Notes: generated from the sequence alone by a model not told the origin. A DNA stretch of 35,284 bases from Acidobacteriota bacterium (GCA_020200025.1 JAIVJN010000031.1:1-35284); one strand, 5' to 3'. Shown: positions 8,741-13,553, numbered from the stretch's first letter. Made by a program: numbers and translations.

Positions 8741-8987
8741 CGGCTGATGAAAAGCCGAGCCTTGAAGTCAAGAGGCACAAGGCCGCCTCTTGCCTGGCCT
8801 ACTCCGGTTGCTGGGTTTTTCACCAACCTGGCAGCGAAGCTTCGCCCCGAACCGCCAAGAGATCAGCGGGGCTGCGCTTCGCTGCCATAGTATTGTTTTG
8901 CCCCGCCTCGCGGGGCCTAGACATCTCCTGAGGCCATTCGGGAAATTAGCTTCATTCACAACGCTCCCAGCCTTAGGAGATGTCTAG
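8737..8987. repeat. Cluster of palindromic repeats, including copy 2 of the element at 1-123
   Basis: Imperfect IR CTAGCGGCTGATGAAAAG...TTTTTCACCAACCTGGCAG (8737-8833). Then GCCCCGCCTCGCGGGGC and CTAGACATCTCCTGAGGC (8917-8934) / GCCTTAGGAGATGTCTAG (8970-8987). Confidence 0.7.
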
Positions 8988-9022
8988 TGTTGCTGGACCC
9001 GCGTTTCGCAACGAGCTTATCC

Positions 9023-9397
9023 ATGGATACCGGCCTCGTCCGTAAACGTCTTCGCTCTGCCGTCGATGCGGCGCGCAGGGAAGCCACGGCACGCCGCTCT
9101 CGCGCTGACGCGTCCGCAAAAGCTTACGAGCAATTCCTCGTCGACGTGGCTGTGCCGGCATTCCGCGCCATGGCCACTGCGCTTCGCGCCGAAGGACTGC
9201 CGTTCGAGGTGATGACCCCGTCCGATGCCGTACGGTTGGTGCCGGAACGCAATCGTGACGATGGGATCACGCTCGAGCTCGATGCGACGGCCGATCCGCC
9301 GATGCCGCTCGTCTCAGTAACGCGTTCGCGGGGCAGCCGCGTCGTCCAGCGCGAGCGAACCGTGAGAGGGGCCGCCACCCCGTACGCCCCCGGATAG
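9023..9397 (+). CDS. Hypothetical protein, 3' end apparently truncated near 9370
   Basis: Protein-like ORF (MDTGLVRKRLRSAVDAARRE...) that runs head-on into the convergent methyltransferase with no normal end. Confidence 0.6.
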   Translation: MDTGLVRKRLRSAVDAARREATARRSRADASAKAYEQFLVDVAVPAFRAMATALRAEGLPFEVMTPSDAVRLVPERNRDDGITLELDATADPPMPLVSVTRSRGSRVVQRERTVRGAATPYAPG

Positions 9398-9996
9398 CGA
9401 CGGATCGATTCGGGAATATACCGATAGGTGTCCGGATCGCCGTGCAGCACCCACCCCACCACGCTGCCGACGCGGGCGAGATAGCTCAAATAGAGCCGCC
9501 GCAGACGAGCGTCGTCCGGACGATTGAAATCGAGTGAAAGGAACCGGCCACCAGGTTTGAGGACGCGGGCGATTTCCTCGAGAGCAGGGCCGAGCTCCGG
9601 GACATTTCTCAATCCGTAACCCGTCGTGACGACTTCGAACGACGCGCCACGAAACGGCAGCGCCATCATGTCGCCGGTGAGGAAAGCCGGACTGGGCTGG
9701 CCGCGCGCCTTGGCGACGGCGATCTCCAGCATGCGATGAGTGACGTCGAGCCCGACCGTGGCCGCCCCCTTCGCACGAAGCAGGTAGGTGATGTCGCCTG
9801 TGCCGGCAGCTAGATCCAGCGCCCGTTCGCCGGGATGGATGTCGGCGAGCTGCACGAGCCGCTTTTTCCAATGCCGATCGCGACCGTAGGAGAACAGGAC
9901 CGTGATGAGATCGTAGCGGTCCGCAATGGTAGCGAAGAGCCGTCGAACGTGGATGCGCTTGCTCTCCGGCGTATCGAAGGCGGCTTCGAGGGACAC
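9370..9996 (-). CDS. UbiE/MenG family SAM methyltransferase, C-terminus missing at the junction
   Basis: LFATIADRYDL, LDLAAGTGD, GYGLRNV, RVLKPGG and TYRYIPESIRRYP motifs. The rest of the ORF to 9124 is antisense of the neighbouring gene. Confidence 0.8.
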
Positions 9997-10003
9997 GCGA
10001 TGA

Positions 10004-10405
10004 TTATCGCGCCACCACCTCGATGACGCCGCGCATCATCTCGGAGTGCGGCCGGCACTGATATTCGTACGTGCCCGGCGCGGTGGGCGCCTCGAACGTG
10101 ACGGAGCCCTGCTGACCGTTGGAGAGAGATCTCGTCGCCACGTCCCACGAGGGAATGGCGAAGTCGTGCACCATGCCCGGCGTCTCATTGCGCACGACGA
10201 TGCGGACCCGCTCACCGGCGGTGACCCGGACGATCGGGTTCATCTCTGGCTGGCCTTCGAGGACGAACGTCATCCCTCTTGTCACGAGGACGATCTGGCG
10301 CGCCGGCGCCCGTTCCGCAACGAGCGGCAGCACCGCAACGATTCCGATGAAAACCGCCGCGCAAACCGCCGCCGTGCGCCAATGTCGTCGAACTACCTTT
10401 GTCAC
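10004..10405 (-). CDS. Exported or membrane-anchored cupredoxin domain protein
   Basis: N-terminal hydrophobic segment, and type-1 Cu ligands H(DF)...C-RP-H-SEM-M in PGTYEYQCRPHSEMMRG. Confidence 0.85.
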   Translation of the reverse strand: MTKVVRRHWRTAAVCAAVFIGIVAVLPLVAERAPARQIVLVTRGMTFVLEGQPEMNPIVRVTAGERVRIVVRNETPGMVHDFAIPSWDVATRSLSNGQQGSVTFEAPTAPGTYEYQCRPHSEMMRGVIEVVAR

Positions 10406-10479
10406 GTCACCCTCATGTCATCCCGCCGATGAGCTCTACGCCCGCAGGGTTCGAGCCCCGCCTGCCGGTGCAGTCCGCT

Positions 10480-11757
10480 TTACCCGACGAACATCCCGGT
10501 CACATACATCACAACCACGCCGACGACGAGACCGGCCAGCACGGGACGTTGCAGCAAGTGCCGGCCCACGCCACCTTCGCCTGCGGTCTGCTTCAAAATC
10601 TGGCGCATCACCTGCCCGATGGCGCCGACACCGAAGCCGAGCATGAGCACGGCCCACACCGGCGAGGTGACGAACCCACCGAGCCACGCGCCGGCGATCG
10701 TCGGTACACCGCCGACCAGGCCCAACTTGAGAAGGTTTGCTACTGGCGCACGGGTGCCTTCTCGCGCCAACGGCGCCACGATCGCCAAGCCCTCGGTCGT
10801 GTTGTGCAGCGTGAAGCCGACGATGAGCAGAGAGCCGAGTGCCATTTCGCCGAGCGCGAACGCCGATCCGATGGCGAGGCCTTCGCCAAAGTTGTGGAGG
10901 CCGATGCCGATGGCGACGAGGAGCGCCAGCACCCAACCGGTGCTGGGCCCAGCGGCGGCCGACGCGGCGTTCGTCTTGTTTCGGCGCTCACCGAGGTAGA
11001 AGCCCACCGCATCGAGCGCCACCCAGGCCGCCATCGCTCCGAATACGAACAACGTCACGCCCTGGTACGACTCGGGGACGGCGGCAGCCGACTCGAGGCC
11101 GTCGAGCGCGCCGTCGACGAAGAGAAAAGCTAACAGCCCAACCGTCAACGCCAGCAGAAAGTCGAGGCCGCGCCGGTCGAGTCTGCCGACCAGCGGATAC
11201 CAGAGGAGGCCAATTGCCACGGGGATCACACCGACATACAGGCCAATCAGTGCAAAGACGCCGAAGAACCGTAATGTCGGCCGCGGCGTTTCGACGGCCA
11301 CACCAATCGCGTGATCGAATGTCGCGCCAGTCGACGTGATCAGCCTGACGAGGTGAGATTCGCCTTGCACCCACGGGTACGGAATCACGAGCCTCGTCCG
11401 ATTCAGGTGCTCGAGGCGTGTGCCCTGTTCCGCTTGAAACGTCCAGAACGCATCGTCGACCATCACTTGCGCGATGGTCACTTCGTCGGGGCCGTCGTTG
11501 AGCACACCCAGGACGATCTGGCCCGGGCTGAGCACAGCCCGCTCGATGGAAAGGCGCTCGACCGGCGGATAGCCGTCGCCGGTGACGAAGCTGGACGGCC
11601 CCCTGCCGATCAAGAGCGCCAGCAGGGCGCCGAGCAATACGAGCGGCCCGAGACCGAGCATCCAGGTGACCACGGCGCGGCGTGGAGGCGTCACCGGGGC
11701 GTCAGCCAGCGTCGAGCGCGGAGCACCGAGCGCCCCCGTGCCGACATTACGTGACAC
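10480..11757 (-). CDS. ZIP (ZupT/GufA) family metal transporter with an N-terminal TM plus soluble domain
   Basis: IGLHNFGEGLAIG and LHNTTEGLAI ZIP motifs. GTG start at 11757 with GGAGG RBS, overlapping the oxidase stop. Confidence 0.88.
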   Translation of the reverse strand: MSRNVGTGALGAPRSTLADAPVTPPRRAVVTWMLGLGPLVLLGALLALLIGRGPSSFVTGDGYPPVERLSIERAVLSPGQIVLGVLNDGPDEVTIAQVMVDDAFWTFQAEQGTRLEHLNRTRLVIPYPWVQGESHLVRLITSTGATFDHAIGVAVETPRPTLRFFGVFALIGLYVGVIPVAIGLLWYPLVGRLDRRGLDFLLALTVGLLAFLFVDGALDGLESAAAVPESYQGVTLFVFGAMAAWVALDAVGFYLGERRNKTNAASAAAGPSTGWVLALLVAIGIGLHNFGEGLAIGSAFALGEMALGSLLIVGFTLHNTTEGLAIVAPLAREGTRAPVANLLKLGLVGGVPTIAGAWLGGFVTSPVWAVLMLGFGVGAIGQVMRQILKQTAGEGGVGRHLLQRPVLAGLVVGVVVMYVTGMFVG

Positions 11758-12793
11758 TGCCAGCCTCCGCACGGAACAGTCCCATCCATCCGAGCTCGGC
11801 GAACTCGCTCTGATGGGCGTGGAACATGAAGTCACCGGGATACCGGAACGTGGTCTCGAGGATGGCGCGCTCGCCTTGCGCGAGCACGATTGTGTCGATG
11901 TGCTCGACGTGCGCCGAGGGCGTGCCGGTCCGCGCGGCATCGAAGAACATGCCGTGCAGATGGAAGCTGTTGAGCAGATCGAACTCGGTGAGGTTCACGA
12001 GATAGATGCGCACCGGCCGACCGACGGTGACGCGCACCGGATCGGTCATGTAGGCGTTGGCGATCGAATTGACCGCGTAGACTTCGTTTTCGTTATCGAA
12101 GTTGGTGTCGAACGCGTTCATCACCATGACCATTTCGTCGGCCGGCGCCCGACCGCCTCGGGGATCGACGATGAACGCGCCGTAGAGGCCCTTGTGAATG
12201 TGACGCTTCAGCGGCACGGCGTGGCAGTGATACAAGTGCAGCCCGACCGGCTCGGCATCGAACTCGTACAGGAACGAGCCACCAGGCATGACCTGATGCT
12301 CGGGCAACGATCCGTCCATTTCCGGCGGGTGCCACCCGTGGAAGTGAATGGTGTGCGGGTGCGATCCCTGGTTGACGAACCGAATGCGCAGGTGATCGCC
12401 CTCCGTCGCGCGGATGGTCGGTCCCGGTACCTCGCCGTTGTACGTCCAGGCGGGGAAGAACAATCCGGGAGCGATCTCGATCTCGCGGTCGACGGCGAAG
12501 ATGTCGTACTCGCGCAGCATCGACCCATCGGGGCGCGAGGTTTCTCGGTAGACCTTCTCGCGCTCGGCGTCCGGTAGATGATTGAAGTTGAAACCGCGCA
12601 GGAACCTGACGGCATCGAAGGCCGACTTTTCGACACGCCCGACCGTCCCCATGGCATGGGCGTGAACCGCATGCTCGGCGCTCGTCGGGGACGCCTGACC
12701 GGAGAGGGCCCGAGTCCAGGCTGCCGCTCCTGTGAGAACGGCGCCGAAACCCGCCACCTGCATCCAGTCCCGGCGGGAGAGTGTCCACTTCAT
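11747..12793 (-). CDS. Tat-exported two-domain multicopper oxidase (type-C-like)
   Basis: SRRDW Tat signal. Domain 1 has HTIHFH and HCH....HIHKGL. Domain 2 has FHLH and HAH (no Cys). Confidence 0.9.
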   Translation of the reverse strand: MKWTLSRRDWMQVAGFGAVLTGAAAWTRALSGQASPTSAEHAVHAHAMGTVGRVEKSAFDAVRFLRGFNFNHLPDAEREKVYRETSRPDGSMLREYDIFAVDREIEIAPGLFFPAWTYNGEVPGPTIRATEGDHLRIRFVNQGSHPHTIHFHGWHPPEMDGSLPEHQVMPGGSFLYEFDAEPVGLHLYHCHAVPLKRHIHKGLYGAFIVDPRGGRAPADEMVMVMNAFDTNFDNENEVYAVNSIANAYMTDPVRVTVGRPVRIYLVNLTEFDLLNSFHLHGMFFDAARTGTPSAHVEHIDTIVLAQGERAILETTFRYPGDFMFHAHQSEFAELGWMGLFRAEAGSVT

Positions 12794-12813
12794 AGTTTTG
12801 ACCGTTCAAAATT
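12794..12813. promoter_or_regulatory. Putative DtxR/MntR-family operator AGTTTTGACCGTTCAAAATT
   Basis: AT-rich palindrome TTTTGA-N4-TCAAAA abutting the oxidase ATG. It overlaps the predicted start of a minus-strand TTGACG-N18-TTTAAT promoter, and the regulator gene is divergent. Confidence 0.65.
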
Positions 12814-12878
12814 AAACCACGCCAGTGGCCGAAACGTCAAGCGCGGTTTGACGTGTCTGCTACCATTTGCAAGGGGCC

Positions 12879-13553
12879 ATGTTTCCTTCGAGTACCGTCG
12901 AAAACTACCTCAAAGCCATCTACCTCGGTGGTGAGGGTCAACTCGAAGTTCAGCGTTTGATGCCCATGGGTCAGTTGTCGGCGGCCCTCGGCGTCGCGCC
13001 CGGCACCGCCACCACGATGGTGAAGGCGCTGGCCGAGTCGGGGCTCGTCGAGTACGAGCCGTACAACGGCGTGCGGCTGTCGGCCGCCGGCGAGAAGCTG
13101 GCGGCTCTCGTGTTGCGCCGGCACCGTTTGGTCGAGCTCTTCCTTGTCCGAGTCATGGGAATGCCCTGGGACGAGGTGCACGACGAGGCAGAGCAGCTCG
13201 AGCACGCGGTGTCCGATCGGCTCATCGAACGGATCGATCAGATGCTGGGCCATCCCGAGGTCGATCCGCACGGGGACCCCATCCCCGACCCCGACGGGCA
13301 GTTGCGGCGCCGGGAGTTCGACACGCTGCTCACGTGTCCACTCAACACGCCCGTCCGTGTCACTCGAGTGACCGATCAAGATGCCGCGTTTTTGCGCTTC
13401 CTCGAGAGCCACCATCTGAAGCCAGGTGAGACGACCGAGGTCGAAGCCCGCGATCAGGTGGCCGACAGCGTGCGGCTGCGTGGACAGGACGACCAGCGCA
13501 TCACGATTGGCATGCGCGCCGCCTCGAAGTTGCTCGTGGAAACGGGAATGTAG
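12879..13553 (+). CDS. DtxR/MntR family metal-dependent repressor with C-terminal FeoA-like domain
   Basis: ENYLKAIY, RRHRLVELFL, EAEQLEH and DPHGDPIP motifs, plus an SH3/FeoA-like tail. Confidence 0.93.
   Translation: MFPSSTVENYLKAIYLGGEGQLEVQRLMPMGQLSAALGVAPGTATTMVKALAESGLVEYEPYNGVRLSAAGEKLAALVLRRHRLVELFLVRVMGMPWDEVHDEAEQLEHAVSDRLIERIDQMLGHPEVDPHGDPIPDPDGQLRRREFDTLLTCPLNTPVRVTRVTDQDAAFLRFLESHHLKPGETTEVEARDQVADSVRLRGQDDQRITIGMRAASKLLVETGM

Follow-up and report, generated by a model that had tools for sequence, protein, structure and literature searches.

The stretch of DNA analysed here, called the window (35,284 nucleotides from an Acidobacteriota bacterium), carries a multicopper oxidase (MCO) gene directly followed by the gene of an extended ZIP permease. 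Sequence comparison of related loci indicates that the two genes belong together as an obligate unit, in different phyla and in bacteria and archaea alike, and that their linkage is not due to chance. The first-pass annotation had proposed a metal-starvation-induced MCO-ZIP module; this reading is supported, its regulation and redox coupling being predicted. That the genes form a module under repression is highly probable. The most complete interpretation at which we arrived, namely a manganese-starvation-induced oxidase-permease in which a ZIP takes the place of an FTR1-type permease, is a tentative proposal that falls somewhat short of an even chance.

The four genes described in the first-pass annotation were all recovered at the same positions. 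The MCO, with a Tat-type signal and two domains (11747-12793, minus strand, 348 aa), the ZIP permease (10480-11757, minus strand, 425 aa) and a membrane-anchored type-1 (blue) cupredoxin (10004-10405, minus strand, 133 aa) are encoded on one strand, and a DtxR/MntR-family regulator with a C-terminal FeoA/SH3-like domain (12867-13553, plus strand, 228 aa; alternative start at ATG 12879) on the other. The MCO, the cupredoxin and the regulator were identified through Pfam. These coordinates also bear out the divergence of the MCO operon from the repressor gene. The open reading frame of the ZIP spans 10480-11940 (minus strand), and the GTG at 11757 is the start backed by homologues; from there, the ZIP start and the MCO stop codon overlap by 11 nt, in agreement with the gene overlap noted earlier, and the ZIP gene appears to be translationally coupled to the oxidase gene.

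The MCO scored above the Pfam cut-offs for Cu-oxidase_3 (89 bits) and Cu-oxidase_2 (80 bits). Its N-terminus contains a twin-arginine motif (SRRDW) and a hydrophobic stretch, both conserved, and export by the Tat pathway is predicted from this signal motif. Its sequence would place the enzyme among the O2-reducing, two-domain oxidases of type C, with a NirK-like layout. NirK itself was rejected as an identification, the equivalog model giving 97.5 bits for a cut-off of 296.3. Fourteen residues were invariant in 31 MCO sequences: H145, H147, H150, H152, H155, H189, C190, H191, H198, L203, H278, H280, H325 and H327. They include the type-1 copper set (H145, C190 and H198 with axial L203), which aligned with 7rab and 3gdc, and the eight histidines of the trinuclear cluster, arranged in the HxH motifs H150/H152, H189/H191, H278/H280 and H325/H327; we took the assignment of the histidines to the individual centres to follow NirK numbering by analogy. 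The closest relatives in the PDB were 7rab (E 5e-104) and 3gdc (E 2e-96), the latter presumably an Arthrobacter protein. All copper motifs, including the C-terminal SEFAELGWMG, align between the MCO and 7rab/7rac and 3gdc; these entries differ from the present case in that the PDB names them just 'multicopper oxidase' and that a partner permease is not in the structures. A full-text search found no paper on 7RAB/7RAC, and a search for 3GDC retrieved no paper containing the code.

The ZIP permease matched the general models of its family below their cut-offs (Pfam Zip, 30.5 bits versus 35.1; NCBIfam ZupT, 39.9 versus 252). A precomputed Pfam Zip match is present in many of its homologues, and Foldseek matched its model to Bordetella ZIP structures (E 1e-4), with a low pLDDT (44-84) in the transmembrane core. 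The metal-helix residues H288, N289 and E292, and H318, N319 and E322, were invariant, as were both HNxxEG helices (HNFGEG and HNTTEG). The AlphaFold model comprises an extra N-terminal helix (about residues 26-52), an Ig-like beta-sandwich ectodomain (about 65-152; pLDDT 90-96) and then eight helices forming a ZupT-like core. The family of the ectodomain amounts to 676 representative clusters at E<=1e-3. This dedicated domain had been overlooked in the first-pass annotation.

In a model of the complex, the ZIP ectodomain docks on an MCO monomer with an ipSAE of 0.66 (0.65-0.69 in three runs), the best of three controls reaching 0.00; for reference, among solved complexes 58 of 80 attained this mark, as against 2 of 110 mismatched pairs. 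At least 90% of the contacts were common to the runs, and the partner pLDDT was 87. The contacts involve residues 108-113 and E330/E333-G335 of the MCO, and Q97, D102-W105, P126-Y127 and T141-G144 of the ZIP, and coincide with the most conserved residues on both chains. Two-domain oxidases function as trimers, and the interface lies partly beside the cluster ligands H325/H327, so that it may correspond to a surface that is buried between subunits in the oxidase trimer. On the strength of these models, physical docking of the oxidase on the ZIP is slightly favoured.

Conservation of the gene pair was evident from several collections of genomes. Among 80 related loci from several phyla, collected via the ZIP, the MCO lay immediately upstream of the extended ZIP on the same strand in every one, and the start of the ZIP frame overlapped the MCO stop by 1, 4, 8 or 11 nt in 70. 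In a reciprocal survey, an MCO of this type was found in 8 of 151 sampled genomes of the phylum, a tally that takes in G000 and the unpublished G049; of the six MCO genomes that were followed, five had the ZIP adjacent and the sixth had both genes at contig ends. The pair was also present in all seven plasmid contexts inspected, the carriers being Rhodococcus, Arthrobacter, Deinococcus, Sinorhizobium, cyanobacteria and Haloferax; plasmid 1 of Arthrobacter sp. FB24, for instance, has the order regulator-MCO-ZIP. An absence of conserved linkage is thus decisively excluded (80/80 loci and 7/7 plasmid contexts). Of the four-part co-conservation initially suggested, the MCO-ZIP part held throughout, and the cupredoxin (46/80) and an adjacent regulator (48/80) proved frequent, not universal.

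The cupredoxin exceeded the Pfam cut-offs for Copper-bind (31.9 bits versus 21.2) and Cupredoxin_1. Its copper loop is amicyanin-like (C-x2-H-x2-M), its matches to amicyanin being weak (E 0.002). In a set of 25 sequences, C117 and H120 were invariant and H80 and M124 were retained in 80% or more; most also had Met at position 123. In the 46 loci mentioned above, the cupredoxin gene is on the same strand downstream of the ZIP; in 2 more, a match was found elsewhere in the locus. A cupredoxin also accompanies the MCO-ZIP pair of Haloferax. Rieske proteins with Tat or lipobox signals were found at the MCO-ZIP loci of Rhodococcus and Chroococcidiopsis, and from these sequences we infer that an exported Rieske protein, an analogous high-potential carrier, sometimes stands in for the cupredoxin. 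The cupredoxin and the adjacent regulator are each missing in 32 of the 80 loci, which counts against the oxidase-permease reading.

The putative operator (12793-12814), recognised as a conserved inverted repeat, consists of the arms TAGTTTTGA/TCAAAATTA at 12793-12801 and 12806-12814. This AT-rich palindrome, 2 nt from the MCO ATG, is the one that had been described as abutting the first ATG. Its exact core, TTTTGA-N4-TCAAAA (12796-12811), lies between the inferred -10 element and the MCO ATG, is present once in the window (with matches in 0 of 100 shuffles) and once in the 4.34-Mb assembly. Of 81 regions, 44 had the motif ATTTTGA-N4-TCAAAAT, with up to 2 mismatches, in the 120 nt that precede the MCO. 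Each of two complete Gemmatimonadota genomes contains a single site of a Gemmatimonadota variant of the operator; both also carry Nramp genes, where the operator search gave no match. Since the site is single in each genome, the regulator looks dedicated, and its regulon therefore gives no proof of which metal is concerned. The putative promoter of the oxidase operon (12811-12840, minus strand) consists of TTGACG (12840-12835), an 18-nt spacer and TTTAAT (12816-12811). It was read from the sequence and inferred from cross-locus conservation, since a TTGAC(T/G)-18 nt-TAnnTT layout also precedes the operator at related loci; a consensus promoter scan called no sigma-70 site here.

The identity of the metal was addressed through the regulator, which exceeded the Pfam cut-offs for PF01325 (Fe_dep_repress, 47 bits), PF02742 (Fe_dep_repr_C, 111 bits) and FeoA (46 bits). 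Its best NCBIfam model was the Thermus-type MntR NF047407 (166 bits, below the cut-off of 350); the MntR model NF008273 gave 68.6 bits versus 153, and every NCBIfam MntR cut-off was missed. Its best solved relatives were 5zr4 and the Deinococcus manganese sensor DR2539 (8pvt). Nine of the ten metal ligands of DR2539, as listed in the preprint on that protein, are identical in the window regulator, the exception being D11, replaced by N; its primary-site residues are N13, E109, E112 and H113. The available part of the preprint describes acidic primary sites as typical of manganese regulators. All 47 readable adjacent regulators were of the manganese type (O/N-donor), with the ligand set D/N, H, E, H, E, E, H in 46 and a D at the E102-equivalent in the other (L075); the first position was D in 14 and N in 33. 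The divergent regulator on a plasmid of Sinorhizobium meliloti qualifies as an MntR at equivalog level (239 bits versus a cut-off of 153), and the intergenic region there has two ATAGC-N4-GCTAT boxes, which agree with the MntR consensus AACATAGCnnnnGCTATGTT, as given in PMC1698941.

We also considered iron uptake, in which the oxidase would be a ferroxidase and the ZIP an iron permease. This would be a direct counterpart of Fet3/Ftr1 in prokaryotes, switched on by a shortage of iron via a DtxR-type repressor. Like Fet3p/Ftr1p, EfeUOB and FtrABCD, the present module would be a starvation-induced system with an extracytoplasmic copper redox protein at the mouth of a permease, serving selective high-affinity uptake; FtrABCD and EfeUOB contain a cupredoxin-type component. 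These systems differ in that they use an FTR1/EfeU permease with REXXE motifs, in that Fet3 has three domains, the oxidase here being two-domain and trimeric in type, and in that they handle iron, the type of regulator pointing here to manganese. Membership of the Fet3/Ftr1 type was rejected, the permease being a ZIP, which makes the module only a functional analogue. Ferroxidase-permease coupling has a precedent (in the text available of PMC12218971 and PMC7785015), and Fe(II) is carried by ZIPs such as IRT1, according to the former. Iron sensors also exist in the DtxR family, DR2539 and TroR being reported to depend on both manganese and iron (PMC3327659 and PMC2628430); this response to iron and the failure of the regulator to reach the MntR cut-offs are observations that count against a manganese reading. 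Yet the Met/Cys ligands of the iron-type DtxR/IdeR were found in 0 of the 47 readable regulators, the NCBIfam DtxR model gave 85 bits, half of the 166 obtained with the MntR model, the regulator paired with the module in Sinorhizobium is a genuine MntR accompanied by MntR boxes, and oxidised iron is a form not known as a cargo of ZIPs. Iron uptake of this kind is very unlikely.

Our literature search found no characterised member of the MCO-ZIP module. The adjacency itself is already on record for ammonia-oxidising archaea, together with a copper-uptake hypothesis, which the first-pass annotation had missed; the 'MCO1 + ZIP' pair of these archaea was reportedly defined by Kerou et al. in 2016. 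It is described as specific to ammonia-oxidising archaea and tied to copper limitation in the passages available of PMC7785015 and PMC5817080, the latter tabulating it. As in our case, a two-domain MCO with type 1-3 centres adjoins a ZIP, and the axial Leu of the Nitrososphaera viennensis MCO1 corresponds to the invariant L203 (PMC7785015, as far as described). In contrast, the present loci, compared by described features only, are bacterial and haloarchaeal and have a manganese-type DtxR/MntR regulator with an operator.

This bears on a reading in which the oxidase would turn Cu(I) into Cu(II) for import by the ZIP, to supply copper enzymes, or in which the module would confer copper tolerance. 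In the portion available of PMC7785015, MCO1 of N. viennensis and its neighbouring permease were raised when copper was limiting, and the authors proposed such an oxidation and import of copper; the rise was small (log2 0.81 and 1.33), and the patterns in Nitrosopumilus conflicted. The rise also counts against the manganese reading. The oxidase and the cupredoxin themselves require copper, but building copper proteins to seek copper is awkward, as the same authors remark. The plasmid pairs often lie amid copper, cadmium and zinc resistance genes, a setting that likewise counts against that reading, and plasmid copies adjoin CopD, a CopY-type regulator and copper ATPases. Yet a known copper sensor was paired with the operon in 0 of the 7 plasmid contexts inspected; the CopY-type regulator of Rhodococcus is about 5 kb away, and the paired regulators are DtxR/MntR proteins of the manganese type. 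Taken together, we regard copper handling as improbable, to about the same degree as iron uptake.

A paper by Baumgart and Frunzke is said to be the one cited for the precedent of an MntR-repressed ZIP importer. ZIPs acting as manganese importers, and MntR repressing a ZIP, are described in the available text of PMC9334652 and PMC11933003. Corynebacterium glutamicum mntT/cg1623, ZupT and TmpA resemble the present permease as ZupT-like ZIPs for manganese import, with MntR-type control of a ZIP gene, but differ in being described, in the sources as available, as stand-alone proteins without an oxidase. As cargo of the ZIP, manganese stands at about even, iron is unlikely and copper very unlikely.

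In the proposed manganese mechanism, ample cytoplasmic Mn(II) would load the repressor and block the promoter, and a drop in Mn(II) (or, as a less likely signal, in Fe(II)) would allow expression of the operon. The oxidase trimer would sit on the ZIP ectodomain, on the outer face of the membrane, and its substrate would be the cargo, Mn(II), presumed to be the sole reduced metal ion that lasts in oxic habitats. An acidic patch common to the oxidase and the ectodomain would capture the oxidised metal firmly and with selectivity, before it is handed to the ZIP. The cupredoxin, or an exported Rieske protein in other lineages, would be the one-electron partner and might give the electron back, such that the ZIP transports a divalent ion. 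Oxidative capture of the cargo is rather unlikely: Mn(II) oxidation is difficult for ordinary type-1 copper sites, and no Mn site was evident in the MCO sequence, which counts against it. ZIPs are, to our knowledge, known for divalent ions only, and we know of no precedent for a trivalent hand-off, which also argues against such capture.

In a further reading, the ZIP would import Mn(II) as an ordinary divalent permease and the docked oxidase would leave the cargo alone. Fed with electrons by the cupredoxin or Rieske protein, the oxidase would instead oxidise Fe(II) and Cu(I) at the permease entrance and thereby keep these ions from flooding through a promiscuous, derepressed ZIP. The chemistry would be known from the families throughout, since ZIPs carry divalent ions and CueO and Fet3 (multicopper oxidases described in PMC7785015, as far as available) oxidise Cu(I) and Fe(II). 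Electrons would flow downhill from the carrier via the high-potential, Leu-type copper site to O2, and the manganese-type regulators, the docking model and the frequent setting in metal-resistance islands would all agree. However, most of the carriers appear to be aerobes from oxic settings with little free Fe(II) or Cu(I); oxidation cannot remove Zn, Cd, Co and Ni, which compete most strongly with Mn(II); and linkage in every one of the 80 loci, together with a dedicated ectodomain, is unexpected for a mere accessory guard. We consider such a guard quite unlikely.

If the manganese-capture mechanism is true, the gain for the cell would be that a weakly binding metal is selected over Zn, Cd, Co, Ni and Cu, a principle already established for Fet3/Ftr1. 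The MCO-ZIP module may reveal a new route for the selection of a scarce metal.

The multicopper oxidase gene (MCO; 11747-12793, minus strand) was found directly upstream of a ZIP gene, on the same strand, at all 80 loci compared. These were the best 80 of 565 confirmed relatives obtained by scanning one genome per species with the ZIP alignment, and linkage was counted by tblastn with six proteins of the window. In 70 of the 80, a start codon in the ZIP frame overlapped the MCO stop codon by 1, 4, 8 or 11 nt. A cupredoxin gene lay downstream in 46 loci and elsewhere in 2 more; a regulator was adjacent in 48 (37 divergent, 6 upstream on the same strand, 5 downstream), and 5 of the 32 loci lacking one end before any sequence upstream of the MCO. 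By sequence comparison, the MCO-ZIP pairing is thus obligate. The first-pass annotation had proposed a survey for joint conservation of MCO, ZIP, cupredoxin and DtxR; the first two proved inseparable, while the other two were frequent companions and not universal ones.

The record titles of the 80 loci were mostly Acidobacteriota, with Gemmatimonadota, Actinomycetota (Thermoleophilia), Candidatus Eisenbacteria and Anaerolineales; a Paenibacillus isolate and a Woeseiaceae MAG contributed one locus each, and binning errors may account for a few of the MAG labels. Over all searches the pair ranged across Acidobacteriota, Gemmatimonadota, Actinomycetota, cyanobacteria, alphaproteobacteria, Deinococcus, bacilli and haloarchaea. 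In the reciprocal test the MCO was present in 8 of 151 genomes sampled across the phylum (E<=1e-40), counting the window's own assembly and one unpublished genome, the latter left out of further comparisons. Six MCO-bearing genomes were followed up: the ZIP adjoined the MCO in five, and in the sixth the two genes stood at two contig ends, facing the gap. Ten of the sampled genomes came from the window's own family or order, and none of these had the MCO; the module is therefore patchily distributed and probably an accessory, transferable element.

Plasmids gave a similar picture. The ZIP search matched 154 plasmid records, and the MCO was directly upstream in 7 of the 7 inspected. Rhodococcus erythropolis PR4 pREL1 carries MCO-ZIP-Rieske beside CopD, a CDF transporter and ArsR and CopY-type regulators; Sutcliffiella horikoshii has MCO-ZIP-TatA next to CDF and cadmium genes; Arthrobacter sp. 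FB24 has MCO-ZIP with a divergent regulator; and in Haloferax mediterranei pHM300 the order MCO-ZIP-plastocyanin-like protein-regulator adjoins a copper ATPase. This cluster is not discussed as a unit in the available text of a review on the copper genes of Haloferax. The other three were Chroococcidiopsis thermalis (MCO-ZIP-Rieske), Deinococcus sp. QL22 (a regulator and DoxD, divergent from MCO-ZIP) and Sinorhizobium meliloti HM006 (mntR divergent from MCO-ZIP). Four plasmid pairs (L083, L084, L086 and L087) lie within heavy-metal resistance islands containing CopD, CDF, CadA/CadC, ArsR or copper ATPases. Such placement suggests mobility and selection by metal stress. That metal-resistance plasmids often carry the module also suggests that it helps to maintain the manganese supply of cells exposed to heavy-metal stress.

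The window's oxidase (348 residues) has two cupredoxin domains, preceded by an N-terminus with the twin-arginine sequence SRRDW. Its four HxH motifs, type-1 His/Cys/His ligands and axial Leu were all invariant among 31 aligned sequences (51-86% identity to the window's protein), a ligand set indicating a true O2-reducing multicopper oxidase. An identity as NirK was rejected, the NirK model scoring one third of its cut-off, although automatic names in the protein atlas read 'nitrite reductase'. Close relatives have solved structures (7rab, E 5e-104; 3gdc, E 2e-96); a full-text literature search on the codes 7RAB, 7RAC and 3GDC found no paper carrying them. Just ahead of the folded part, residues 41-48 (12650-12673) form a His-rich stretch, H-x2-H-x-H-x-M, kept in position in most homologues, which may act as a metal-collecting arm. 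The window is contig C247 of a 4.34-Mb assembly (501 contigs, 82% complete), and the closest named relatives of its proteins belong to Vicinamibacterales (Acidobacteriota) MAGs.

The permease (10480-11757, minus strand, 425 residues) begins, by comparison with its homologues, at a GTG at 11757, within a longer ORF starting at 11940; this start gives an 11-nt overlap with the MCO stop codon. In the AlphaFold model (31 sequences), a helix near the N-terminus (26-52) leads to a beta-sandwich predicted with high confidence (about 65-152, pLDDT 90-96), after which come eight helices; this predicted architecture sets the permease apart from an ordinary ZupT. Its helical core matched a solved Bordetella ZIP (Foldseek E 1e-4), and both metal-site helices, HNFGEG and HNTTEG, were invariant among homologues; the Pfam Zip score fell slightly below the cut-off (30.5 vs 35.1 bits). 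A fold search with the ectodomain returned generic Ig-like matches (archaeal pilins, FlaF/FlaG) and no metal-binding relative. Searched alone, the ectodomain matched 676 representative clusters at E<=1e-3, in which it occupies residues about 35-150 of ~400-residue proteins or stands in fragments. Distant ZIP relatives in the protein atlas had automatic names and bacterial taxa only, and looking them up by cluster yielded hardly any names.

Contact between the two proteins was modelled with one monomer of the mature MCO (residues 36-348, 31-row alignment) and the ZIP ectodomain (55-162). The complex scored 0.66 (three runs: 0.65, 0.66 and 0.69; at least 90% of contacts in agreement; partner pLDDT 87), as compared with 0.00 for the best of three controls. 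Of 80 solved complexes, 58 attained this mark, as did 2 of 110 mismatched pairs; this calibration applies only roughly here, since the model was run on custom alignments. The predicted contacts involve the most conserved residues of both chains: on the MCO, residues 46-51 (the end of the His-rich stretch), A108-F113, E330 and E333-G335 of the invariant SEFAELGWMG tail; on the ZIP, T94, Q97, D102-W105, P126-Y127 and T141-G144. Acidic residues from the two chains meet in the model, E330 and E333 with D102. These predictions support, rather than show, binding of the MCO to the ZIP ectodomain. Oxidases of this type are trimers, and the SEFAELGWMG tail lies beside the cluster ligands between subunits; part of the monomer-modelled interface could therefore be a trimer contact.

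No genuine MCO-ZIP fusion that would back this contact was found. Among 6 long-protein matches, the 5 that were read all had out-of-frame junctions and were taken as frameshift artefacts, the sixth being P0398, a protein with UbiE and Zip domains; two seeming fusions among the representatives were of the same frameshift type, and in Paenibacillus a stop codon separates the two genes. The 'fused' entries in public protein sets (P0242, P0364, P0397 and P0399-P0402) are read-throughs due to frameshifts at the overlapping stop and start, and could mislead surveys of domain architecture.

The third component varies. In the window it is a cupredoxin (10004-10405, minus strand, 133 residues) whose N-terminus forms a hydrophobic anchor; the ligands of its type-1 copper site, H80, C117, H120 and M123/M124, were largely kept in 25 homologues (C117 and H120 in all). 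The Rieske proteins of Rhodococcus and Chroococcidiopsis bear lipoprotein-type signals with twin arginines and are similar to high-potential Rieske proteins of the b6f/bc1 and arsenite-oxidase type; judged by these features, they are exported one-electron carriers in the cupredoxin's place. Clustering of downstream ORFs yielded a cupredoxin group (24), UbiE (7), the regulator (3) and noise, with no other conserved third gene outside Acidobacteriota. A UbiE/MenG-type quinone methyltransferase (9124-9996, minus strand) begins 7 nt after the cupredoxin, and in 22 of the 80 loci a gene of this type, in the same orientation, was present no more than 1.2 kb downstream of the ZIP, all these loci being titled Acidobacteriota or Vicinamibacterales bar two oddly labelled MAGs. 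This neighbour could reflect mere synteny or hint at a link to the quinone pool. The last ~80 residues of its long ORF overlap a convergent ORF of 136 residues (8987-9397, plus strand), and in other loci this tail matches at separate places, once on the opposite strand.

The divergent DtxR-family regulator (12867-13553, plus strand) has DNA-binding and dimerisation domains and an FeoA/SH3-like domain. Its best solved relatives were 5zr4 and 8pvt. The former, titled in the PDB as a metal-dependent regulator, we take to be Mycobacterium tuberculosis MntR. The latter is the Deinococcus manganese sensor DR2539, according to the accessible part of a preprint (10.1101/2024.02.12.579695); 9 of its 10 ligands are identical in the window's protein, D11 being replaced by Asn. 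Within the 73-nt intergenic region lies the palindrome TAGTTTTGA-ccgt-TCAAAATTA, whose exact core lies 2 nt from the MCO ATG. The core occurs once in the window (matched in 0 of 100 shuffles) and at one site in the assembly, where the runner-up carries 2 mismatches. Upstream of it, TTGACG and TTTAAT with an 18-nt spacer form a putative promoter, a layout that recurs in related loci; we infer it, as a simple promoter scan did not call the site. With this arrangement the operator would cover the likely transcription start, leaving almost no leader. A perfect 7-nt inverted repeat, ACGTCAA-N7-TTGACGT (12834-12854), sits between the divergent genes; its arms read TTGACG outward to each gene, and instead of a second operator it may represent a pair of -35 elements set back to back.

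The operator is conserved: ATTTTGA-N4-TCAAAAT was present within 120 nt of the MCO start in 44 of 81 regions with up to 2 mismatches, and in 49 with up to 3. Gemmatimonadota have ATTTTTAGCCTAGGCTAAAAAT in its place, and Thermoleophilia TTTTAGA...TCTAAA. In two complete Gemmatimonadota genomes (G151 and G152) the TTTTAG-N6-CTAAAA variant occurs once per genome, upstream of the MCO. The only DtxR-family gene of each lies far from this operator (~0.86 Mb in G151, ~0.97 Mb in G152), among unrelated neighbours and not beside a transporter, in what looks, from the genome sequences, like a one-regulator, one-operon arrangement.

Several observations bear on the identity of the metal. Forty-seven of the 48 adjacent regulators were readable, and at the DR2539 positions they had H, E, H, E/D, E and H, with D (14) or N (33) at the first ligand position; none had the Met/Cys ligands of iron-type repressors. 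By these residues they are manganese-type regulators. The Sinorhizobium partner is a short E. coli-type MntR (239 vs 153 bits, well over the equivalog cut-off), and its intergenic region contains two ATAGC-N4-GCTAT boxes, which fit the published MntR consensus (PMC1698941). Two unrelated branches of the regulator family, both of manganese type, are thus wired to the same operon. Manganese import by ZIPs and a MntR-repressed ZIP in Corynebacterium are both described in excerpts of the literature (PMC9334652 and PMC11933003, respectively).

Against certainty on manganese, the window-type regulators score under the MntR equivalog cut-offs, and some relatives are reported to respond to iron as well (PMC3327659, PMC2628430). 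Plasmid copies lie amid copper, cadmium and zinc genes, and the accessible portion of a Nitrososphaera study has the adjacent MCO1 and permease slightly up under copper limitation (PMC7785015). Iron uptake and copper uptake by the pair are both possible alternatives. The scanned genomes offer no regulon from which to infer the metal, because each has just one such operator: no second site was found in the window's assembly or, for the variant, in the two complete Gemmatimonadota genomes, where Nramp genes exist and the search gave no site elsewhere. The only Nramp match of the window's genome is a fragment (contig C119, 14-496) cut by the contig start, so that no promoter is left to compare with the operator; a search for a ZnuA-type binding protein in the assembly, which is 82% complete, gave none.

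The comparisons show the anatomy of the module, its obligate MCO-ZIP pairing, the conserved operator and the manganese-type regulators. Beyond these we infer an oxidase-permease that is induced by starvation and uses a ZIP as scaffold, manganese being its cargo and the oxidase acting on that cargo. Three considerations favour this reading: most named carriers are presumably aerobes, and in oxic habitats the reduced metal ion to persist is Mn(II); oxidation of a scarce metal would be pointless unless it served capture; and the dedicated ectodomain that the ZIP has acquired invariably accompanies the oxidase. In its most novel form the reading becomes a cycle, improbable as a whole: the docked oxidase would convert Mn(II) to Mn(III), which would be captured at a carboxylate patch common to oxidase and ectodomain; the tethered cupredoxin or Rieske protein would then return the electron, and the ZIP would carry Mn(II) inward. 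As weak points, a ZIP that handles a trivalent ion would be unprecedented, and any re-reduction would need a source of electrons. The main rival requires known chemistry only: the ZIP would import Mn(II), and the docked oxidase would merely clear Fe(II) and Cu(I) at its mouth.

To our knowledge, oxidase-coupled uptake is established for iron and known only with FTR1-type permeases, and work on the ZIP family, found in all kingdoms, has treated its members solely as divalent carriers that act alone. The oxidase-permease principle is already familiar from Fet3/Ftr1 and bacterial FTR1-based systems. Bare MCO-ZIP adjacency has been noted in ammonia-oxidising archaea, and searches combining MCO and ZIP with regulator, operon, manganese or cupredoxin/Rieske returned only archaeal papers noting it. 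The first-pass annotation knew of no characterised example, and our literature search, which covered texts other than supplementary files (where operon or expression tables may lie), likewise found no characterised bacterial member. By these searches, four features are apparently unpublished: a ZIP extended by an ectodomain, its pairing with a manganese-type regulator and operator, the exchange of cupredoxin for Rieske partners, and the breadth across bacteria and haloarchaea.

Selective manganese uptake is a standing problem, since Zn, Cu, Ni, Co and Fe all outbind Mn(II) at any site that accepts it. If true, the redox-gated import of manganese would circumvent the Irving-Williams series by biochemical means, and would be the first oxidase-permease both on a ZIP and dedicated to manganese. 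ZIPs would also become candidates for the partner of uptake oxidases that are still orphans, among them Mco4 of insects, for which no permease is known (PMC12218971). The module is directly testable, with cultured tractable strains, solved structures of close oxidase relatives and a defined operator and regulator. It would extend the principle of oxidase-coupled uptake to the ZIP family, and would frame both the unexplained MCO1-ZIP pair of ammonia-oxidising archaea and the animal and fungal uptake oxidases that work without Ftr1.
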